Source: a virus (lineage: Duplodnaviria; Heunggongvirae; Uroviricota; Caudoviricetes). From it: a DNA stretch of 64,000 bases. Shown here piece by piece: positions 4,341 through 61,931 of the stretch. Under the pieces are notes generated by a model, which searched no databases, was not told the origin of the DNA, and saw nothing but the letters and a program-made list of their open reading frames with translations. Both the position numbers and the translations under genes were made by a program. How positions within the stretch are numbered: the first letter of the stretch is position 1; every line of letters begins with the position of its first letter. The stretch lies in IMG/VR virus record IMGVR_UViG_3300045988_141797. One strand, given 5' to 3'.

Positions 4341-5771
4341 TTACGGATAGGTTATGCTGAACGTTGATGATTCCACGTCCAGATAAACAAAATCATTAAA
4401 GTACACAGCTTCTTTCATGTTCTGCGTAGCCACGTCATAAGACAGGAACATATCCAGCGATTCGATTACTCGCCAGATATCTTTTACTTTGACCTGTGCA
4501 TAACATTGCTGTGAATCGTCATCACTCTGCAATAGCTGGCTAAATGACATGGAGTCTTTACCGAAGTTCTCCTCCAGTGCCGCTTTAATTGCAGTTAGCG
4601 CGTCATCCACCAGCACACTCTTTTTTACGATACCGGTAAATTTGATGTTGAACGGCTGTTCATTGGTGGCGACGTATTCGAACTTCTTATTCAGCTCATT
4701 AGGGATACTCTCAAGGGCTGATAATATCTCTGTTTTCAGAGCTTCCTGTGTTACGCCGGGCTTGTGCCCACAAAAGAAAATTTTGTTGATATTACGCACA
4801 TCAAAGCCCGTGATTTTCTCCTGTAGCGCCTCCCCCCACACGTTAAGCCATGACGTGCCACTGACCACGTTCTGAATGAACTGGCGGTAATCACCGCCCC
4901 AAACAACCTGCTCATCGTAGGCCACATAATACTGCGCCCTGTTTCGGGTTTCCTCGGTAGTTTCCATGCCACCACCGCCAGAAATGATCGAATCGGTTTT
5001 TACTTCCAGTGATTCGACATACCCGGAGATGTTCCCTGCTGGTTCAAGTTTCTGGCCTTCAGCCAGCGTGTAATCACCGAGGCTTGCCATAATATCAATG
5101 CGTACCTGACTCCCTGCCGCTGGCATCATCCCCATTGATCCATCACCGAAGCGCACGCCGATCTGTTCTGTCGGCTTATAAACCAACACATAATGTTTAC
5201 TGTTATCCCTGGACATGCGGAACAGGGGGTTATGTGTCCATTTTTCCTCGACACCATTAGTTATCACGACAACTTCCAGGCTGGCGACTTCTGCTGTTAA
5301 CTCACGGGAAAGTAACAGCGTCAAGAATGGTGTTTCTTGCACCACGTCGAACGTTACGCTGACTGCTTCATGCTGTTTTACTTCTATGCCGGGTACTGTT
5401 TCACCAGCAGGGATAACAACACTACTGCTGGTTGCAATTGGTGTCTGGTCACTTGTCAGTAATTCAGCCCCTCCGGGTAGAGTAATATCCCTGTCGGTTT
5501 TGTTGGTGATGGAAACAGTGCCGTATGACGCATCGACCAAACGACCGACATAGCCACGGTCTTCCGCTGCCGCGAGAATACTTGCTCTACGCGTCGCGGT
5601 GGAAATGAATCCTTCTGTAAGTGCACGGCTTGCAAATGTACGCGCAATATAAACAATCTGCGCGCCCAAAACGGACTGCATTTGAATAAACTGGCTGTTT
5701 ACAAATCGCGCCCACCAGGGGTTTTCGTTCAGCTTGGCATTAAACTTGTCCAGTAATTCGGTAATACTCAC
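4341..5771 (-). CDS. putative baseplate protein (J-like)
   Basis: 476-aa ORF, stop/start overlap with the gp25-like gene; size and position typical of baseplate J. Confidence 0.4.
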   Translation of the reverse strand: MSITELLDKFNAKLNENPWWARFVNSQFIQMQSVLGAQIVYIARTFASRALTEGFISTATRRASILAAAEDRGYVGRLVDASYGTVSITNKTDRDITLPGGAELLTSDQTPIATSSSVVIPAGETVPGIEVKQHEAVSVTFDVVQETPFLTLLLSRELTAEVASLEVVVITNGVEEKWTHNPLFRMSRDNSKHYVLVYKPTEQIGVRFGDGSMGMMPAAGSQVRIDIMASLGDYTLAEGQKLEPAGNISGYVESLEVKTDSIISGGGGMETTEETRNRAQYYVAYDEQVVWGGDYRQFIQNVVSGTSWLNVWGEALQEKITGFDVRNINKIFFCGHKPGVTQEALKTEILSALESIPNELNKKFEYVATNEQPFNIKFTGIVKKSVLVDDALTAIKAALEENFGKDSMSFSQLLQSDDDSQQCYAQVKVKDIWRVIESLDMFLSYDVATQNMKEAVYFNDFVYLDVESSTFSITYP

Positions 5772-30124: not shown

Positions 30125-30924
30125 TCGATCACTCCGTTTTGAGTGGTATCAAAGTTCCTGGCCGGGATGCAGTAATAAAGGGAGCCGACGTGTTGTGTTC
30201 CGTAGCTGAAGATTCGATGCACGTACCACCAGCGGCGGGCGAGGCCATTCGCCATTTCTTCGTTCCATTCCAGGATTGAACCAACAGGTACGTTGTTTGC
30301 AGCAATACGCAGGATTAGCACTTCATCAGCAAGACCATCCTGTTCTCCATCGGCATCAATGGCATGAAACGAATCCCTTCCGTCCGGGTTATCCAGGACG
30401 TATACGATTTCCGGTTCCAGATAGGTAAGCTCACGCTGGTTGTTGTCCAGTTGCGTGAAAGACTCTTCACCTGTTTCATCGTTTACGACGCCATAGGTGC
30501 CATCAGCCGGGCGGTATAAAAGCGCCTCGAACGCGTCAGGGCTTGATTCAATAATGAGCATCCAATCGGCGCGGATCTGGTCGTTGAACGCTTTATGTCC
30601 GTTATATCGGGTTTTAAGCTGCTGGTTTGGTTCTCTGTTAGCGAGCGATGCCGGTAGGGGAGCGATGTCAGGTTCAATCACTTCCGTAACAGAGTCACCA
30701 GCATTATCAGGCCAATTATCATGGCTATTAGATTGGGTGGCGGCGTGCTCTTCCAGAATACTGAATGGCCCTGCACTGACATTCCCATTTTCCGTTGTGC
30801 TTCCTTCATTCGCTTCAACCGTCGTTGTCTCTTCTCTCTGCGTGCTGTCATGTTCTGTTCCCTTTCTCATCAGGCTTGCATCATCAGCAAGCCATTCATC
30901 AAAACGGCCCATAAGCGTCCTCAA
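30121..30924 (-). CDS. hypothetical acidic protein
   Basis: 267-aa ORF, first gene of this minus-strand operon. Confidence 0.3.
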   Translation of the reverse strand: MRTLMGRFDEWLADDASLMRKGTEHDSTQREETTTVEANEGSTTENGNVSAGPFSILEEHAATQSNSHDNWPDNAGDSVTEVIEPDIAPLPASLANREPNQQLKTRYNGHKAFNDQIRADWMLIIESSPDAFEALLYRPADGTYGVVNDETGEESFTQLDNNQRELTYLEPEIVYVLDNPDGRDSFHAIDADGEQDGLADEVLILRIAANNVPVGSILEWNEEMANGLARRWWYVHRIFSYGTQHVGSLYYCIPARNFDTTQNGVIE

Positions 30925-31075
30925 AGGTCGATTTATCAGGTATCGAAAGGAAGATTTTCGGGAGATTGTGATTTTGGATGGAGGAGGGGAATTGTTACAA
31001 TATGCACTTGCGCACGGTGCAACGGTGCGCTATCATTATGACATTCATTAATAATCATGGAGGATAAAATGATCG

Positions 31076-31378
31076 ATGAGCAAAAAGATTAACATAAAGA
31101 ATTTCAGGGATGAGTGGCTTGATGATTTTTTTGAATTTTCAATACCACACAAAAAGATACCTTCTGATATTCAGATTACATTGTTGCGGAAGCTGGATAT
31201 TATCAATGCTGCAACTACTTGGAAGGACTTGAGATCACCACCAGGTAATCGGTATGAGGAATTGTCAGGGAAGCTAAACGGCTATTCATCAATAAGGGTG
31301 AATAAGCAATACAGGTTAATTTTTAAGTGGGTTAACGGAAAGGCCGAGGACTTGTATCTCGACCCTCACAAATACTAA
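31076..31378 (+). CDS. higB: HigB-family toxin (RelE/ParE superfamily)
   Basis: 100 aa; toxin-first order; C-terminal block QYRLIFKWVNGKAEDLYLDPHKY typical of HigB toxins. Confidence 0.75.
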   Translation: MSKKINIKNFRDEWLDDFFEFSIPHKKIPSDIQITLLRKLDIINAATTWKDLRSPPGNRYEELSGKLNGYSSIRVNKQYRLIFKWVNGKAEDLYLDPHKY

Positions 31379-31449
31379 AACAAATACCCGGCGGATGGAC
31401 CGGGTACTGACCAGAGTCCACTTAATACGCACGCTAGTAAGGGCAAAAA

Positions 31450-31788
31450 ATGAAACAGGCAACCAGAAAACCGACGACTGTAGGTGATATCCTGCTGTAC
31501 GAATACCTGGAGCCGTTAGAGCTTAAGATCAACGAGTTAGCAGAAATACTTCATGTTCATCGTAACACCGTAAGTGCTCTTGTTAATAATAATCGTAAGC
31601 TAACGATGGATATGGCATATCGCCTGGCAAAAGCATTCGATACTTCTGTAGATTTTTGGATTAATCTTCAGACCGCAGTAGACCTGTGGGAAGTCGAAAA
31701 TGATATGCGCGTTCAGGAAGAGTTAAGTCGTATCAATACTGCTGAAAAATTTATTTCTCAGCGGAACCTGAATAAAAAAGCAGCCTGA
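31450..31788 (+). CDS. higA: HigA-family HTH antitoxin
   Basis: HTH (INELAEILHVHRNTVSALVNN), 112 aa, directly downstream of higB. Confidence 0.7.
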   Translation: MKQATRKPTTVGDILLYEYLEPLELKINELAEILHVHRNTVSALVNNNRKLTMDMAYRLAKAFDTSVDFWINLQTAVDLWEVENDMRVQEELSRINTAEKFISQRNLNKKAA

Positions 31789-31808
31789 TATAGTAAAACA
31801 CATACAAA

Positions 31809-31835
31809 AAGCCCACTTAACAAGTGGGCTTTCCT
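31809..31835 (+). terminator. intrinsic terminator after higBA
   Basis: perfect hairpin GCCCACTT-AACA-AGTGGGC followed by TTTCCTTT. Confidence 0.55.
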
Positions 31836-31844
31836 TTGGAATTA

Positions 31845-32204
31845 ATGAACATTAAACCTATCCGTACAGAACAAGATTATGAGGCCGCACTGCGTGCGGT
31901 CGAACCGATGTTCGATAACGAACCGGAAATGAACACCCCGGAAGGTGATTTCTTTGAGGTCATGTGTCTTCTCATTGAGGAGTACGAGAAAAAACATTAC
32001 CCAATTGAGCCACCATCACCTATTGAGGCCATTAAATTCCGTATGGAACAGCAAGGGCTGACCGTGAAGGATCTGGAACCGGCGATTGGTAAGTCAAATC
32101 GTGTTTACGAAGTGCTAAATGGAACACGAAATTTAACGTTACCTATGATTCGTCGTTTACATTCCCAGTTTGGCATTCCTCTTGAAAGCCTGGTTGGTGT
32201 ATGA
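31845..32204 (+). CDS. second HTH antitoxin-like protein (E. coli HigA/YgjM-type), no cognate toxin adjacent
   Basis: domain layout and C-terminal HTH (KSNRVYEVLNGTRNLTLPMIRRLHSQFGIPLESL) resemble chromosomal HigA as I recall it; ATG at 31845 follows the terminator. Confidence 0.55.
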   Translation: MNIKPIRTEQDYEAALRAVEPMFDNEPEMNTPEGDFFEVMCLLIEEYEKKHYPIEPPSPIEAIKFRMEQQGLTVKDLEPAIGKSNRVYEVLNGTRNLTLPMIRRLHSQFGIPLESLVGV

Positions 32205-32238
32205 GTTCGGCGGTCTGTATGACCGCCTTTGTTGTCAA

Positions 32239-33435
32239 TCAAGAACCTTTCTTCACGTACTCCATAAACATTTTTTCAGCTTGCCCAGGTGACGTTCCTG
32301 CCATGACCAGCGCATCAATGAACGCCTGCTTCTTCAGTGCGAACTGATCGGCAAGGCGTTGCTGAAGCTCCTTGTTTTTCTGTTTCTCACGTTGCAAGGC
32401 CGCTTCTTTTGCTGCCGCTCGTTTTTTCTGTGCGTCTGACAACTTTCTGGCCCTGGTCAGTTGGTCACGTAGCTTGTCGATCTTGCCGTTGTCCTTCGCC
32501 AGTTTTGTACTTAAAGCTGCCTGGCGCTTCTGATAGAGCCTCCATTCGCGTTTGGCGGCTTCAACGTTCGTTTTACTGCTACGATTGCGATTAAACTCCT
32601 TCTCGTCTTCTTTTGAGAAGTGTTTGGTTGTACGGCGGCGATCGTCACCAAATGCAATTTGCGTTGCAGCCTTTTGTAGCGCACGAGCAATACTCATCTG
32701 CCAACTGGCAGACTGTAGTCGTGTCATTGAGTGGATCACATGTTTACAGGCGACGCCTTGCAGCTTAGGGTTGCGAACTTTTGGATAGGCGTATTCTTTT
32801 GGCGGGGCCAGGGCAAAGTTACCCGCAGTGGCGATGTAGCGATACCAGTATTGATGGCGACCGCAGTCACAGTCGAAAGACACTCGCCCGGCACACAGTG
32901 ATTTTGTGACTTTCAGGGCTGATTTATCGTCTTCTGCGATGTCATCGACCATCTGATCCCATTCTTCAAAACGTACCCGGACAATGTGGTGCTGGTGAAC
33001 GGATATATCGGACGCTTCCACGCGGATATTAATCACATTGTGACGAAGAGATACGGGCGTAGCTCTTTTGATACCAGAACCGTCGTCTACGGCGTTATTT
33101 GCTCGCTTAATATCGATAGCCTGGCTGGACGCTACCAGTTGTGCGTATGTGATGCCAGCCGTCTTGCTGTCATATTTTTCGCGTGCTTTGCTTCGCAGCT
33201 TTTCGAAGCCTTTCAGATCGTCACGCGTAAAGAACGTGCCGCCTTTCTTTTTCCCCAGCTTAAGAATGTCTTCAGCTGATTTATTCCTAAGCCTGCCCGG
33301 CGTGAGTGTCCTGTGCGCCTGGCGGCGTTTGCGGTTTTGCTCTTTCCTGATGAGTTCAAATACGCGTGTGAAATCCTTAGAGGACAGGCCGTCAGTGATA
33401 TATCGCCCGTCCTGATTTTTCAGGAAGTCAGGCAT
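32239..33435 (-). CDS. SWIM-type zinc-finger protein with K/R/Q-rich coiled-coil tail
   Basis: CxC...CxH signature (SFDCDCGRHQ ... GVACKHVIH); C-terminal 100 aa is charged coiled coil. Confidence 0.45.
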   Translation of the reverse strand: MPDFLKNQDGRYITDGLSSKDFTRVFELIRKEQNRKRRQAHRTLTPGRLRNKSAEDILKLGKKKGGTFFTRDDLKGFEKLRSKAREKYDSKTAGITYAQLVASSQAIDIKRANNAVDDGSGIKRATPVSLRHNVINIRVEASDISVHQHHIVRVRFEEWDQMVDDIAEDDKSALKVTKSLCAGRVSFDCDCGRHQYWYRYIATAGNFALAPPKEYAYPKVRNPKLQGVACKHVIHSMTRLQSASWQMSIARALQKAATQIAFGDDRRRTTKHFSKEDEKEFNRNRSSKTNVEAAKREWRLYQKRQAALSTKLAKDNGKIDKLRDQLTRARKLSDAQKKRAAAKEAALQREKQKNKELQQRLADQFALKKQAFIDALVMAGTSPGQAEKMFMEYVKKGS

Positions 33436-33757
33436 TTTCTATCTCCGGTGCCGAGCCAGCGTAATCGCGAATCTTGTTTCTTAGCCATGCTGCGTCAGGA
33501 AGAGTTAACGTTGTCCCGACCGGCATTTCTTCCATTTCTGACTCATGGCCCACCAGCACGCGAAATACCCAGCGCAAATCAGCGTTGCCATAGGCGCGAT
33601 AGGCCGCCAGGTCTGAGCGATAAACCTCATCAATTTTTATCGTGTACTGGAAATTATCGGAGTGATACTCCGATACCCGCTTGATCATCTCCTGATGGAA
33701 TAGTGCGCGCAGCACATCGTCTTCAATGCATCGATCGTCGAGCCTGCTGTAACTCAT
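33428..33757 (-). CDS. hypothetical protein, overlap-coupled to SWIM gene
   Basis: 109-aa ORF with 8-nt overlap. Confidence 0.35.
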   Translation of the reverse strand: MSYSRLDDRCIEDDVLRALFHQEMIKRVSEYHSDNFQYTIKIDEVYRSDLAAYRAYGNADLRWVFRVLVGHESEMEEMPVGTTLTLPDAAWLRNKIRDYAGSAPEIENA

Positions 33758-35007: not shown

Positions 35008-35637
35008 ATGAAGGATGGTTTTGTGAAGTTAAGGGTTTTGGGAGCAGTGCTCGCGGTTATATTGGGGGGAGTTTCTCTTAATGCTGCCTATGCAGGCGCG
35101 TTACCTGCAAAGTATGAGGCTGGGCTGAAGGTGTTGCGAAACGCCAAAACAAACTATACGCCTGATGAAGTTTCAAACTATTGCCAGAAAGAAAATATCC
35201 CGCTGAAACCTGTAGAGCCATTCTTTAAAAGCAACATTGAGTTCTGTGTATTTGCATATGCAGCAGATGAAACAGGCAAAGCCATACAAAAGACAGGGTA
35301 TTCCACCAAAGACACAATGTCGGTGTTAAGTAACGGCGTGTTGCAGTTTGAGCTTTATCGTCAGCAAGGAATGGGAGATCTATTGCAGCCTTTGTATATG
35401 CTGGCTTGGGTGCCTGAAGGGCAGCAGTTTCTTATCCGGAAAGGGATGCTTCGGCAAAGTGATGTGGCAGGATTCAATAACATGATGGAACTTGAACGAT
35501 CCGCGAAGCAAAAACAAGCACCTAAGCAACCTACAGCGGAATGCATTCGTAGTGAGATCCAAAAGATATTAAGTGAGCAGCCTTACATTGATCGTGGGGT
35601 AGCCGAAGTCGCTGCAAAAATGAATTGTACTAATTAA
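35008..35637 (+). CDS. secreted/periplasmic protein, hypothetical
   Basis: signal peptide MKDGFVKLRVLGAVLAVILGGVSLNAAYA; ORF-track N-terminal extension rejected. Confidence 0.45.
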   Translation: MKDGFVKLRVLGAVLAVILGGVSLNAAYAGALPAKYEAGLKVLRNAKTNYTPDEVSNYCQKENIPLKPVEPFFKSNIEFCVFAYAADETGKAIQKTGYSTKDTMSVLSNGVLQFELYRQQGMGDLLQPLYMLAWVPEGQQFLIRKGMLRQSDVAGFNNMMELERSAKQKQAPKQPTAECIRSEIQKILSEQPYIDRGVAEVAAKMNCTN

Positions 35638-35680
35638 CCTCAAATTGGATGAAAAGACAACAATGTATGGAGTTAATGAA

Positions 35681-36124
35681 ATGATACGCATAAAAAAAGA
35701 GAAACCATTTTCTTCAACAAAGACATCAAACTTGAATAAGCTGGCTATAGCGGCATTAATGTTTTTTCCTTTGATTGCTAATGCTGGGAATTTGCAGGTA
35801 AAGTGCGGTAGGTTTGATATAAAAATCTATCCGAACGCCATATTTCTGAATGGGAATAAGGTTGATAACGCGCACCGGAAAACTGAATCTGACGTAATGA
35901 GCTATGTGTTCCAGGAGTATGCCGAGATGGGGGGAACTTACACGTTGTACTCGCTGGATGTTCCTTCTCGCGGTGATATGACGTTATCTCATCAATGGCA
36001 GAACGCCGATGGCGAAGCTCTGCGCGAGGTTAAAACAGAAAAATGTGGCACTTTCCATTCTTTTAAAGGGAAAGCGCCCAATGTTAAATCTACGCTTGAA
36101 AAACAGCGTGCTGGTGAGCTTTAA
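35681..36124 (+). CDS. secreted protein, hypothetical
   Basis: signal peptide ...LAIAALMFFPLIANA; ATG 35681 has GGAG RBS. Confidence 0.4.
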   Translation: MIRIKKEKPFSSTKTSNLNKLAIAALMFFPLIANAGNLQVKCGRFDIKIYPNAIFLNGNKVDNAHRKTESDVMSYVFQEYAEMGGTYTLYSLDVPSRGDMTLSHQWQNADGEALREVKTEKCGTFHSFKGKAPNVKSTLEKQRAGEL

Positions 36125-41977: not shown

Positions 41978-42684
41978 AATTTTCCAAATTCTCGGAGTTG
42001 GTGAATAGTATTTTGTCCAACAACCACAGCCATCGTCGCGATATGGATGTAACGATCGTTGTTCATTCGCCTGGTCGCATCGGTTCAACACCATCAGTTG
42101 AGGTTCAGTCAATTCAGGTGGGTTTTGATTGGGATGCCGGGAAAGTGCTGATTTTCCCAGCACAGCCACTGACCACGCTAACACCAGAACAGATTACTGA
42201 TATCACGGATAGTGTGCGCAAAGGTCAGTCTTGGCACGCATATCAGGAATACAAGAAGCATAAAGAGCAGTTGGGAAAATTGTCGATTGAACTGGATGCT
42301 GCAAGACGGCGCATTACAGAACTGGAGAGCGAACGCGCGGTGCTGGCGGCGGAGAATGCGGAGCTGAAGTCTGTGCACCCTCAACCATTCGGAGCTGAGA
42401 TGATGAAGGCTCTTGATGCGTATGAGAAGCATCAGGATGAAGTGCCAGAGACTGGAATGCTCAATGCATTTTTCATCTTGCGCGACAGTATCCGTGTTGA
42501 CACCCCAGCCACCGATGCTTTCCTGGCTGAAGTACGTGCGCAGGGCGTGGATATGGCTCGTAACGCGATGATTGATTTTGTCGATGGTGAAGTTGGGCCA
42601 AACAAGAACGTTCCGGGGCTGATTAGAGGCGCAGAGATATGCGTAAGTATTGCTGAACAGCTTCGCAAAGGAGGCAGCCAGTGA
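41974..42684 (+). CDS. hypothetical protein, paralogous module with the 40230 ORF
   Basis: [15 protein letters not shown] and [13 protein letters not shown] blocks. Confidence 0.35.
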
Positions 42685-48010: not shown

Positions 48011-48463
48011 ATGCACGACCGCATAGATACGCTGGAAAATTGCGATGATGACCGTATTGAGGGTGTTAAGGCTGTTTTGCGCAGACTGGCTGGCAACTAT
48101 CCGGATATTCCGGATAGTTCGGTGCCAGCACCAGGAAAGGGCGTCACCGGTGAACGTATCCGAATTAAGCCGCATGTTTATCGCGAACTGGTTAACCGTC
48201 TCCACGATACAGCGATCAAGTGTGCTGGCACCCAGCAATTACGAGAAAGAATTAGCCGTGTTTTGGGCGACGTTATTACGCCAGATCATCATAAACAAGC
48301 CGAGAAAAGTGACCTGGAAAGGTGTCACCTTGAGGCGGCATTAAACATTAAGCCGGGGCATACGCTTGGCATTATCGATGCTCTGTTGGTTCATAAGATG
48401 GCCAGGGCTTTATTGCCGCTGGTGGCTGAAAAGCATGAGGCGGACCATGCCAACGAAAGCTGA
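48011..48463 (+). CDS. hypothetical protein sharing a module with the DUF4406 protein
   Basis: PHVYRELVNRLHDTAIKCAGTQQLRERI versus PHIYRELVNALRDIAAVYHGTEQLRERL. Confidence 0.35.
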   Translation: MHDRIDTLENCDDDRIEGVKAVLRRLAGNYPDIPDSSVPAPGKGVTGERIRIKPHVYRELVNRLHDTAIKCAGTQQLRERISRVLGDVITPDHHKQAEKSDLERCHLEAALNIKPGHTLGIIDALLVHKMARALLPLVAEKHEADHANES

Positions 48464-48715
48464 ATTACAGGTGCGCGTAGATGAGCTTGAAAAAGAGAAC
48501 GCGAGCCTCAAAAAAATGCTGTCGCGGGCGGAAAGGGAATTATCAGGCAAATTATTGCCAGAAGAACTGCCACCAGCAGATATACCTGATCGCGTGTCCT
48601 GATGGATGAAGTATTTCCGTGCACCGTGGGAGGCGTTTTGGTGCTACGACCATCGCAGATGGTGTGATGAACTTGATAGCAGTTTTCCCTACTTTGCGGA
48701 AGGGAACACCTGCCC

Positions 48716-49066
48716 TCAATGCAGGGGATAGCATTTGACGAAATCGATCACCCTATCCTGAGCTTCAGAAAGAAGGTCTTTTTCTCGCGCCAGGACGTCA
48801 GGATATTGACGTTCTGGCCTTATCAGATGCCGGAGCTTCCCATTAAGCAGAATGGCCTCAGAAAACACTTTTACGCTGTGCTTTATCCCCTCTGTTTCAC
48901 TTTTCAGCGTCAAAATAAAGCGCAATTGCTTATTAGCCTGATTCGGATTCAATACACGAATTTGCAGTTCGTCTATGCTGTTTCGCAATGGGATTGATGC
49001 CACCACACTGGTGCAGTCCCTGATTGTCTGAATTGAACGGCTAACATTGAGAACGTTATTGTGCAT
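48716..49066 (-). CDS. hypothetical protein, lone minus-strand gene in plus-strand array
   Basis: 116-aa ORF. Confidence 0.3.
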   Translation of the reverse strand: MHNNVLNVSRSIQTIRDCTSVVASIPLRNSIDELQIRVLNPNQANKQLRFILTLKSETEGIKHSVKVFSEAILLNGKLRHLIRPERQYPDVLAREKDLLSEAQDRVIDFVKCYPLH

Positions 49067-51165: not shown

Positions 51166-52272
51166 TCACTCAATGATTTTTTCTGCTGTCAGCCAGCTAA
51201 TTTCTTGCCTGTCTTTCGGCGGTTTTAGCATGTGGGCGTATTCAGCGACATTCTCCCACGGAATTGTTTTTGCCCACTCAACGATAGCATTGTGATCTGC
51301 AGTGAAGAGTGGAATGGTGTGCGATTTCAACCACTCTAATGTTGTAACGCCATGTTTTTTGGCGTGGTGCTGTGCATGATGCCGGGCTATCACTAGTAAT
51401 GGCATTGTCCATTCACTACCATCAGGCATCGTAAAGCGCATTGTTTTCGGCATATCTGATTCAAGAACAGCCTCCCGAATACCAGGGAACTCACCAAGAA
51501 CCATACGACGGTAGTAATCGCCGTTTTTACCACCATGCGATTTTGCGAACTCATCGAAATAATCTTGAGTGAGAAGAGGTGATTCTTCTGCGTTCAGCTT
51601 AATAGCCGTATAAATACCACATGGATTTTCTTCAGTTTTTGCTCGATCATGATGGGAATCGTAAAAGTGTCCATGTTCCTCCTCTGGAGGAGCAGACGTC
51701 AAAAGTATACGTGAGTCGCCACTAACTAAAGATGCTCTTAACATCCCGAATAGCCGATAGCTTACCAGAGCCGCGTCCATAACAATGATCAGAAGATGTT
51801 CACCATAATACCCGGCTACATCTTCCTCATAATTTAGGCGATATGGTTTAATTTCGCAGCCCCAAGATTTTTGGTAACGATGATTGAGGCCATTTTGAAC
51901 GAGTTGAAAATACTCTCCCAGCAATGGCGCTTTTGTATTAGCTTTCTCCCAATACATGTTCATGAGTGAAAGAGTTACCATTGCATTACGCTCAAAGTCT
52001 GGAGCGACTATGACCGTTTTAGACTCAGGCATCAGGATCGTATAAAGGATACAAATGATAGCCAGAGCAGACTTATGCCCTATCCCATGCGGTGTGGTAA
52101 CGCTGACTGCTGAACCTTTTTGTTGAATCGCCTCAACAATTAGCTTTTGCTGGTGGGTTAACTTAACACCCATCAACTCTTCTGCTGCTAATGCCCAGTC
52201 ATGGCTATATTTGCTTACCAGCTCTCTCCACTCTGGTAATTCGGTGATGTTTTTAGGCGTCAGCATCAGCAT
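51166..52272 (-). CDS. degenerate paralog of the large terminase ATPase domain, no nuclease domain
   Basis: colinear with the N-terminal 300 aa of the 57607-59115 terminase; Walker A interrupted (TPHGIGHKSA vs SGHGTGKSS); Walker B acid lost (LLIIVMDAA vs LLLILDEAS); unrelated C-terminal 100 aa. Confidence 0.6.
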   Translation of the reverse strand: MLMLTPKNITELPEWRELVSKYSHDWALAAEELMGVKLTHQQKLIVEAIQQKGSAVSVTTPHGIGHKSALAIICILYTILMPESKTVIVAPDFERNAMVTLSLMNMYWEKANTKAPLLGEYFQLVQNGLNHRYQKSWGCEIKPYRLNYEEDVAGYYGEHLLIIVMDAALVSYRLFGMLRASLVSGDSRILLTSAPPEEEHGHFYDSHHDRAKTEENPCGIYTAIKLNAEESPLLTQDYFDEFAKSHGGKNGDYYRRMVLGEFPGIREAVLESDMPKTMRFTMPDGSEWTMPLLVIARHHAQHHAKKHGVTTLEWLKSHTIPLFTADHNAIVEWAKTIPWENVAEYAHMLKPPKDRQEISWLTAEKIIE

Positions 52273-53059
52273 CCTCCGCTACCTCTGCCTCCACATCTGC
52301 CGCGACTTCATCGGACTGTTCTTCTTTGGCCTGTTCTGCAATCGCCGCACGGCATTTCGCCCTGGCTGTAGCGATGGCCTCAACTTTCACGTCATTAGGA
52401 ATACTTGAGGTGACATACATATCCAGTTCTTCAGCACGGAATACTGTTTTGTCCAGGAATTCATCAAGCATCCAGGTTAAGGAAAAGTCGCAGGAAATCA
52501 GCTCTACTTCGCCTTCCGCGCCGTTTGGGAAATGGATAAACATCTGCTTGCCCAAGCCAAGCACGCGACAAGCAGCCATCATTACTGCAAGTTCCAGGTC
52601 TTTGTTTTCACCTGCTACTGGTTGATCCACACCAGTAATAGTGCCGTTCAAATGGATATTATATGGCTGATATTTAGAGATGCGTTCTACACGCCATGTG
52701 CCGGTTAAGGTTCCCTGGCGGAAGATTATTGGCGTGACCGAAAGCGACAGCTCTCGAATGAGTTGTTGTGCTATGGCTGGGTCATACAGGGGATCTAACG
52801 CGATGCATCCATAAGACTGCGCCAGTTCAAACAATTCTTCCTGTGTGCACTGAATGTCTCTTGCCGTAATAAAACGTCTGACTCCCGTTTTTCCGTCACG
52901 CCAGATAGCAATGCCATTCTCACTATCTAACTCTTCGTCTAAACCCAGGTATGTAAGGATGGTTCGCTCAATGGTGGCAAAGGGCAGGGACATATCATCG
53001 TTTACATCCACCAGCAGGCCGTTACGCAGGCGATATTGAATGTTTTTGGTATTTTCCAC
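52253..53059 (-). CDS. hypothetical protein with acidic C-terminal tail
   Basis: 268-aa ORF, overlaps downstream gene by 20 nt. Confidence 0.3.
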   Translation of the reverse strand: MENTKNIQYRLRNGLLVDVNDDMSLPFATIERTILTYLGLDEELDSENGIAIWRDGKTGVRRFITARDIQCTQEELFELAQSYGCIALDPLYDPAIAQQLIRELSLSVTPIIFRQGTLTGTWRVERISKYQPYNIHLNGTITGVDQPVAGENKDLELAVMMAACRVLGLGKQMFIHFPNGAEGEVELISCDFSLTWMLDEFLDKTVFRAEELDMYVTSSIPNDVKVEAIATARAKCRAAIAEQAKEEQSDEVAADVEAEVAEDADADA

Positions 53060-60976: not shown

Positions 60977-61359
60977 TACCAGCGGGATAAACGAACAACA
61001 TGCTTAACTTTTGCCTCCCACTTCCCTTTATGTTTGTTGATCACCGCCTGCGCCATCTTCAGACTGGCTTCAAAATCGGCTTTTCGACCACTATTGCCCA
61101 CCAGCAACGCTCCGTCTATTTCAGGTAAGCATAAGTAATCCTGCTCGACGGTAAGCGGCATTGATGATGTAACCTGGCAGGCTTTCCATCTGAAGCGTAT
61201 GCGCACACTCCTGACTGACATCACGACATAACCTGATATTGTGCTCTTGTGTCCGGCGTCTGTGCGTGTAGCCTTGCATGATGTTATCTTGCAGGTGATG
61301 ATATCCCAACCAATGTGCATCGCATCCTCAATGCGTAATTTAGTAGCCTCGTACATCAA
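60976..61359 (-). CDS. hypothetical protein
   Basis: 127-aa ORF. Confidence 0.3.
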   Translation of the reverse strand: MMYEATKLRIEDAMHIGWDIITCKITSCKATRTDAGHKSTISGYVVMSVRSVRIRFRWKACQVTSSMPLTVEQDYLCLPEIDGALLVGNSGRKADFEASLKMAQAVINKHKGKWEAKVKHVVRLSRW

Positions 61360-61931
61360 AAAACCTCCCAGTCAGTAGCGATAATATCAACACCAGTTGC
61401 AAACCAGTCTGTCTGTGCCTGTAAATCCCCATTCATCATTACCAGGCGAGGCATAACCATCACATCACAACCTTCAACAATATCGAATGCCTCTTCCGGC
61501 AGGAATTCGACGAGCTTTTCTTTGCTGCCAACACTGCCACGGAGCATCGATATATAGCTCCCTTTAGGCCATGATGTTCGCCGGGCATCAAGCCCCTTCA
61601 TCATCCAGTAAAAGGCCGATGAGAACGGGATGTTCTTTTTGGCGATGAGCACGTTATTCGCTTCTGTGTACTTCAGGAACTTAACTAACCTTACCATCGA
61701 CTCGGATAACGCAATGTACGGCTCATGATTGATTGCTGACACACTTACGCCGTGCAGTCCAACACTTACCACTGTCATATCACCGTTCTGTGCGGTTTCG
61801 ATGTTGACGCCTTTACGAACTAACGCTGCATAAAGCTCCTCGCGCTTTTGCGTCCAGCATTCTCGTCGCCCTATAAAGTCACTCAAAACGAGATCATCTT
61901 CTAAATACGCGTTATCGTTCGCCGTTAACAT
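61356..61931 (-). CDS. second DUF2829 (Tad2-like) domain protein
   Basis: C-terminal half FSSAFYWMMKGLDARRTSWPKG...DLQAQTDWFATGVDIIATDWEVF parallels the DUF2829 block of the 53066 ORF. Confidence 0.4.
   Translation of the reverse strand: MLTANDNAYLEDDLVLSDFIGRRECWTQKREELYAALVRKGVNIETAQNGDMTVVSVGLHGVSVSAINHEPYIALSESMVRLVKFLKYTEANNVLIAKKNIPFSSAFYWMMKGLDARRTSWPKGSYISMLRGSVGSKEKLVEFLPEEAFDIVEGCDVMVMPRLVMMNGDLQAQTDWFATGVDIIATDWEVF

Follow-up and report, generated by a model that had tools for sequence, protein, structure and literature searches.

In Escherichia coli K-12 and Shigella, the antitoxin HigA (YgjM, encoded in the ygjN-ygjM locus) has a helical domain at its N terminus and an XRE helix-turn-helix (HTH) at its C terminus, and the regions for toxin interaction and dimerization in this HigA class are reported to be N-terminal (PMC7160566). 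Modules of the class, in which the toxin HigB belongs to family PF09907, are toxin-first operons with palindromic operators. We analyzed a 64,000-nucleotide stretch of viral DNA (IMG/VR record IMGVR_UViG_3300045988_141797; the whole stretch is hereafter called the window), which by its sequence is a D6-like phage-plasmid of the P1 family. It contains a gene for a HigA with the same domain order (31845-32204), but this gene lacks a toxin gene, an operator and a promoter of its own, and its product has 119 aa instead of 138 aa and is only ~30% identical to K-12 HigA. The same three-gene order as in the window is present in phage D6 (orf70-orf72, MF356679), where the counterpart of the orphan is 98% identical and the GenBank record annotates a RelE-family toxin and two 'HigA family addiction module anti-toxin' genes. 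D6 differs in having an extra downstream gene, orf73, and a higB allele that is 89% identical at the protein level to that of the window. The paper on D6-like plasmids names only 'higA-higB' as a killing system (PMC6799933), and we found no published comment on the second HigA of D6. Our comparison with related plasmids gives good support to the parsimonious reading that the orphan is the cognate antitoxin left behind after a cassette swap, in which a complete and unrelated higBA cassette with its own hairpin replaced the promoter, operators and toxin gene of the resident module. Below, 'type I' denotes D6-like elements with a PF09907 higB and higA at this hotspot, and 'type II' those of the window type, with a PF05015 cassette. 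The cassette and the orphan comprise the following features.

30975-31075, plus strand: left end of the swapped-in cassette and upstream region of higB; homology to type-I elements (99.3-99.4%) stops at 30974.
31076-31378, plus strand: higB, RelE-fold toxin of the PF05015 (Rts1 HigB/GraT) class, 100 aa; full PF05015 profile matched with E=1.2e-34; phrog_3066, 'toxin of TA system'.
31450-31788, plus strand: higA, predicted cognate antitoxin with an N-terminal HTH, YbaQ-like, 112 aa; TIGR02607; PF01381 at residues 16-70.
31808-31832, no strand assigned: perfect hairpin at the right end of the cassette; two 11-nt arms, 100% complementary, with a 3-nt loop.
31845-32204, plus strand: orphan higA of the class that partners PF09907 toxins (E. 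coli K-12 HigA/YgjM), 119 aa; HTH_3 (PF01381) at residues 63-115; phrog_1373.

Sequence and structure comparisons agreed on the class of the orphan protein. Residues 6-112 aligned with E. coli/Shigella HigA of the YgjM type (5IFG_B and 5YCL_A; E=2e-8), and an AlphaFold model with a predicted local distance difference test score (pLDDT) of 91.6 contained two helices (9-23 and 32-51) in the N-terminal domain and five in the HTH domain behind it. In a Foldseek search of the PDB, the only full-length matches to this model were E. coli/Shigella HigA from HigBA complexes (6KML_B, 6KMQ_B, 6JQ4 and 5YCL; 29-32% identity), whereas likeness to the HigA encoded upstream was confined to the HTH (28% over 54 residues). 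The start codon in homologues and in RefSeq is the ATG at 31845; the GTG at 31824 chosen by the open reading frame (ORF) finder falls within the hairpin at 31808-31832. The orphan family consists of stand-alone proteins of 118-124 aa, which form a tight group in Enterobacterales and beyond. That the gene encodes a truncated fusion protein was ruled out, as hundreds of these stand-alone homologues end at the same place. Taken on sequence grounds, the orphan gene is a member of an antitoxin family and the locus is an incomplete module.

The missing partner could be named from homologous loci (n=154, collected from genome scans, viral scans and earlier fetched loci). A full PF09907 higB lies directly upstream of the homologue in 119 of the 154 loci and a partial one in 6, and 18 loci, all of them D6-like, carry a PF05015/YbaQ-like cassette there instead; in the other 11 no upstream higB was found, in some through a contig edge or high divergence. 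Homologues with 83-87% identity to the orphan, from Kluyvera chromosomes and lambdoid prophages of Salmonella, begin 5 nt downstream of a 100-aa PF09907 HigB. As judged by these gene neighborhoods, the cognate partner of the orphan is a PF09907 HigB. A tblastn search of the whole 64 kb with three PF09907 HigB queries gave a best match of E=0.12, showing no PF09907 HigB in the window. These results bear out three statements of a preliminary description of this DNA, namely that 31076-31788 holds a toxin-first HigB/HigA pair (confirmed by the PF05015 and TIGR02607 profile matches), that a second HTH protein of YgjM-type layout, unlike its upstream neighbor, begins at 31845, and that no toxin gene accompanies it. 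Paired PF09907 higBA also occurs as a prophage moron: on the chromosome of E. coli E2865 (L164:4057-4721) it lies between dicB/ydfC and lambdoid prophage repressor genes, and in Salmonella (L007-L010:2693-3360) it has a minor tail gene on one side and the tape-measure gene on the other.

Type-I elements show the paired arrangement at exactly the same hotspot, as exemplified by the loci L091 and L131 and the complete plasmid NZ_LR890273.1. The cassette of the latter (HigB WP_021551810.1 and HigA WP_021551809.1) has a HigA identical to the orphan, at the same site in a backbone ~98-99% identical, and retains the toxin gene and the operator-bearing promoter, whereas the window has the PF05015/TIGR02607 cassette; the accession WP_021551809.1 is common to type-I and type-II plasmids. 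Both L091 and L131 are ~99% identical to the window as far as 30974, and the match resumes at 31845. Between these blocks they contain about 390 bp in which a promoter is flanked by two operator palindromes (ATCCCAGCATGGGAC and GTCCCATATTGGGAC) and higB follows; the counterpart in the window is 870 bp long (30975-31844). The homology of the orphan to toxin-paired loci begins at its ATG, and the replaced segment ends a few bases short of the higA start codon. Of the window, 95% aligns to NZ_LR890273.1 at ~98% identity, including a block of 25 kb at 99.4% that contains repB and parM, and the higBA cassette is one of only five differences of more than 100 bp between the two. The other unmatched stretches of that size in the window are 35446-35763, 42556-42657, 48120-48730 and 51209-52281.

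Among 5426 complete E. coli genomes, which formed our survey sample, the cassette at 30975-31844 occurred in 76, always on plasmids, and type-I plasmids numbered 19. Repeats flanking the cassette, as a mobile element would leave, were searched for, and only short matches at chance level were found. The stretch from 31845 to ~35445 is more diverged from NZ_LR890273.1 (94-96%) than the left flank (99.4%), which suggests that the cassette may have arrived via homologous recombination with a more distant type-II donor. The antitoxin would have stayed because, by the logic of TA addiction, losing both halves at once would not be survivable and keeping the antitoxin would be the only viable route to loss of the toxin gene.

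The incoming pair belongs to a different class. The product of higB has as its nearest solved relative GraT (6F8S_B; E=7e-14), and the HigA next to it scored 102.5 bits against TIGR02607 antidote_HigA (cutoff 47.7) and aligned to E. coli YbaQ (2EBY; E=1e-53). With a full-length toxin in toxin-first order, 31076-31788 is thus a PF05015/TIGR02607 higBA of the Rts1 HigBA/GraTA class. Upstream of higB lies an inverted repeat, GCGCAC (31010-31015) and GTGCGC (31025-31030), which we infer to be a candidate operator for this HigA. Compared with D6, the window has 11 substitutions among the 100 residues of HigB (12 synonymous and 11 nonsynonymous changes; pN/pS 0.23), and the cognate HigA is 100% identical at the protein level (4 synonymous and 0 nonsynonymous changes). 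Among E. coli plasmids the higB alleles fall into two groups, one of 13 with ≥99% identity and one of 63 with 90-95%. The chromosomal ybaQ, closely homologous to the cassette HigA, was found at 4833 chromosomal places in the surveyed genomes, and the toxin half is kept beside it in only about 1260 of them; this orphan HigA of the host might blunt the plasmid HigB.

The spacer between higB and higA is 71 nt, longer than usual, and contains an additional hairpin.

31383-31408, no strand assigned: hairpin in the higB-higA spacer; 10-pair stem, called on the minus strand by the terminator scan.

The sequence after the higB stop codon (31372-31425) resembles that after the higA stop codon (31790-31820), first in ATACTAAAACAAATAC and ATAGTAAAACACATAC, then in AGTCCACTTAA and AGCCCACTTAA, and the first copy of the repeated sequence is broken by the extra hairpin. 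The resembling stretches may be a duplicated terminator region, which would account for the length of the spacer.

Whether the orphan is made depends on the few signals in front of it. The hairpin at 31808-31832 had been described as a perfect terminator. Its pairing is indeed perfect over 11 bp, with a centroid energy of -14.6 kcal/mol (range -14.6 to -15.7; z=-3.56 against shuffled sequences), and it is kept in D6 except for one loop base. Termination, however, may be inefficient: the tail that follows, TTTCCTTTGG, is imperfect, and a consensus scan called a terminator at the hairpin on the minus strand only. The hairpin is therefore probably a partial terminator of the higBA operon, since TTTCCTTTGG is a poor T-tract. 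Upstream of it and of the orphan, TGATATAGT at 31786-31794 forms an extended -10-like element (TGnTATAAT) that shares bases with the stop codon of higA and is conserved in D6; the consensus promoter scan accepts only sites with a -35 element and passed over this one. An Rfam scan of 30800-32400 gave no match near gathering thresholds, only terminator-like noise. A further hairpin lies behind the orphan, and beyond it the ORF map shows a convergent tail gene.

32209-32227, plus strand: terminator-like hairpin after the orphan, GGCGGTC...GACCGCC and then TTTGTTGT, found by the terminator scan.

In our preferred reading, the orphan is a relic of the lost module that still confers immunity in trans when expressed, to which we give a probability of roughly 0.55. 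Expression would come via read-through of the weak-tailed hairpin at 31808-31832 or from TGATATAGT. If made, the orphan should bind and neutralize the HigB of sister plasmids in trans, because the protein is identical to the HigA that is paired with that toxin. This would protect the element from the post-segregational killing that incompatible sister plasmids exert and from closely related prophage HigB toxins, while it imposes its own, different addiction module. Both anti-addiction and TA-based plasmid competition are established ideas (PMC12548467, PMC10790755).

Carriers of suitable toxins were present in the survey. Type-I and type-II plasmids share a replicon, and none of the 5426 genomes held both, which fits incompatibility. 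A PF09907 higBA lies on lambdoid prophages beside the immunity region in 148 of the 5426 genomes; the N-terminal domain of the prophage HigA is identical to that of the orphan at 54 of 55 positions, and the prophage HigB (WP_000692026.1) is 89-90% identical to the plasmid toxin. In a tree and a table of variable sites, type-I and type-II higA alleles were intermixed and mosaic, so that the two kinds of plasmid evidently meet and recombine. The suggestion that a solitary antitoxin on a mobile element could neutralize a competitor or chromosomal toxin is thus sharpened for competitors, which can now be named as the type-I and prophage HigB toxins, and weakened for the chromosomal HigB of E. coli K-12 (YgjN), an unlikely target because K-12 HigA shares only ~30% identity with the orphan. 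The orphan could repress TA loci of the host, as was also proposed earlier, only at elements with TCCCA-N4-TGGGA operators. This operator, allowing at most 1 mismatch, had 0 matches in the 64-kb window, and the longer family operator AGTCCCA-N4-TGGGACT, allowing at most 3 mismatches, had 1 match in the window, no more than expected by chance, so the orphan appears to be without a cognate DNA site in these 64 kb.

Conservation of the orphan might seem to argue for a function, as the window differs from type-I higA alleles by 10-20 synonymous and 0 nonsynonymous changes and pairwise pN/pS among type-II orphan copies is 0.04-0.11. We nevertheless gave pairwise dN/dS less weight as a sign that the orphan is under selection, because the alleles are intermixed and the private variants relaxed. 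Indeed, a number of observations weigh against present immunity. Most of the orphan's conservation is shared with type-I alleles, and recombination with toxin-paired copies may account for it. Of the variants confined to orphan copies, ~5 are synonymous and 5 nonsynonymous, which is not clearly distinct from neutrality (P about 0.05-0.16), so that constraint in the orphan state looks relaxed. At least 4 independent inactivations have occurred in type-II elements: two truncations, one at ~codon 62 that leaves a 66-aa N-domain ORF and one shorter, the stop Q69*, and a frameshift. Moreover, about 57 of the 76 type-II plasmids in complete E. coli genomes have lost the HTH half. As to expression, a strong hairpin (31808-31832) stands 12 nt upstream of the orphan ATG, the promoter scan found no plus-strand site close upstream, comparison with type-I loci shows that the native promoter and both operators are gone, and with them the GGAG Shine-Dalgarno sequence, which was sited in the 3' end of the lost higB. 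Orphan HigA genes are also common, as ybaQ stands without a toxin in most E. coli genomes. Selection for retention of the orphan thus appears weak or episodic, with the gene decaying in most relatives.

In D6-like plasmids the orphan most often takes the form of a 66-aa ORF with the whole N-terminal domain and no HTH (L002:3894-4094; L136-L144:3001-3195); it is joined to a divergent orf73 allele, has a PHROG of its own (phrog_10398), and is called an HTH/HigA protein in RefSeq.

Several of these points would equally be expected if the orphan were a pure relic without present function, barely expressed and drifting, with intact alleles re-imported from type-I plasmids. The lost promoter, operators and Shine-Dalgarno sequence, the even ratio among private variants, the repeated inactivations and truncations, and the mosaicism with type I all favor this explanation, as do a pseudogene lineage with 2 synonymous and 6 nonsynonymous changes and the finding that an intact toxin is absent in about 11% of other family loci too. 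Yet about 19-20 of the 76 type-II plasmids keep a full-length copy, and the products of several of these copies, on differing backbones and beside differing higB alleles, match the paired antitoxin residue for residue. The counts of private variants are also too few to tell neutrality from moderate constraint, and the commonest truncation retains exactly the N-terminal domain reported to bind the toxin (PMC7160566). We therefore hold the pure relic to be a tentative explanation, plausible but on balance doubtful. More ambitious than a relic with leftover immunity would be a succession of addiction modules as a competitive strategy, in which the toxin half is replaced and the old antitoxin kept for one-way immunity against sister plasmids and prophage toxins, while cells that lose the element are killed. 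Such a succession, which we consider unlikely, would, if true, account through this asymmetry for the excess of swapped over original arrangements (76:19) in complete E. coli genomes, and the 66-aa truncation would then be a minimized antitoxin that is free of DNA binding and keeps its toxin-binding N-terminal domain.

A role in counter-defense seems distinctly improbable to us. The orphan would here shield the phage-plasmid from PF09907 HigB-type abortive infection by lambdoid prophages or by systems like PD-lambda-2, with T4 Dmd and the orphan antitoxin-like enzymes that counter DarTG1 as analogues. The families do correspond, since the PF09907 toxin of type-I elements matched the PADLOC profile PD-Lambda-2_A (E=1e-41) and the orphan matched PD-Lambda-2_B over positions 1-119 of 402 (E=6.7e-43); the prophage higBA lies next to the immunity region, where exclusion genes are typically found, PD-lambda-2 defense has been shown experimentally (PMC9519451), and phage-borne orphan antitoxins have a precedent as counter-defense (10.1101/2024.07.11.602962). 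However, two-gene PF09907 higBA pairs are not known to act against phages, the expression signals of the orphan are weak and its loss is frequent. In PD-lambda-2, moreover, B is toxic and A neutralizes it (PMC9519451), and a free HigA-like domain that titrates A could trigger the system instead of blocking it. Still less probable, to a degree that makes it marginal, is that the orphan acts locally as a third component, whether by serving the neighboring PF05015 higBA, as its second antitoxin or co-repressor, or by regulating orf73. The three genes at 31076-32204 are all on the plus strand and tightly spaced, higA is followed by an orf73-like gene in both cassette types, and three-gene defense systems derived from TA modules exist (PMC9519451). 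But the toxin classes and antitoxin architectures differ, the PF05015 pair has its own cognate antitoxin, and the operator of the orphan family is absent from the window. As for orf73, the window lacks it, as do other plasmids with an identical orphan, and it persists where the HTH of the orphan is deleted; its regulation by the orphan in the window was rejected on its absence.

The gene orf73 itself (D6, L001:5316-6044) encodes 242 aa with predicted membrane segments and a coiled-coil-like C-terminal half, and belongs to phrog_8191, with no Pfam or PADLOC family. It follows the orphan in D6 and many type-II plasmids and is present in type-I plasmids too, with alleles 36-100% identical among plasmids that are otherwise 95-99% identical, a pattern that suggests diversifying exchange like that of exclusion or defense genes. 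In the window, the junction at which orf73 is missing lies at about 32230-32247. The wider setting is that of a widespread plasmid: the locus is flanked by homologues of P1 tail genes 7 and 25, D6 is 94.8% identical to the window across higBA and the orphan, 112 PLSDB plasmids from E. coli, Salmonella and Shigella match the window, and the cassette of pCUVET19-1396.3 is 100% identical to that of the window. The annotation of the sister plasmid NZ_LR890273.1 names a Thoeris anti-defense Tad2 family protein at 32861-33436 of that plasmid, which maps to about 61356-61931 of the window in a block 99.8% identical; the sister plasmid's own annotation also names tRNA genes, a hicA toxin and phd/doc.

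Among defense systems, the nearest relative is PD-lambda-2 (Vassallo et al. 2022), whose A protein is homologous to the lost partner toxin and whose B protein is homologous to the orphan over its first ~119 residues. B, the toxic part, is a HigA-peptidase fusion with a C-terminal ImmA/IrrE domain, and a third gene encodes C (PMC9519451). The orphan, unlike the ~400-aa B, stops where the stand-alone 119-aa family stops. Membership of the locus in PD-lambda-2 was rejected, as the window HigB has no match to PD-Lambda-2_A and B is matched only at 1-119 of 402 positions, without the peptidase. As for the C component (P4 antitoxin-like), no plus-strand gene follows the orphan in the window, and orf73 of D6 had no PADLOC match.

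Orphan antitoxins, anti-addiction and TA-mediated plasmid competition are already known, and the D6 record labels the gene. New here are that the missing partner is identified, that the replacement is delimited, and that three states (paired, orphan and truncated) share one hotspot. Orphan antitoxins are very common and usually uninterpretable; in this case one can name the partner toxin, describe the replacement event together with its boundaries, and point to the competing elements in which the toxin is still present. Expression, trans neutralization and fitness benefit of the orphan stand as inferred parts of the preferred reading. If one-way immunity is true, the locus would be a natural example of addiction-module replacement and of TA-based competition between incompatible phage-plasmids; if there is no immunity, it would show the order of TA decay, with the toxin lost first and then the DNA-binding half of the antitoxin, and a relic made to look conserved by recombination. 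In the described cases of anti-addiction, such as chromosomal ccd against F ccd and ybaQ, a solitary antitoxin is likewise akin to the antitoxin of a competing element (PMC12548467, PMC10790755). In contrast to those cases, the orphan of the window resides on the mobile element itself, next to the addiction module that replaced its own.

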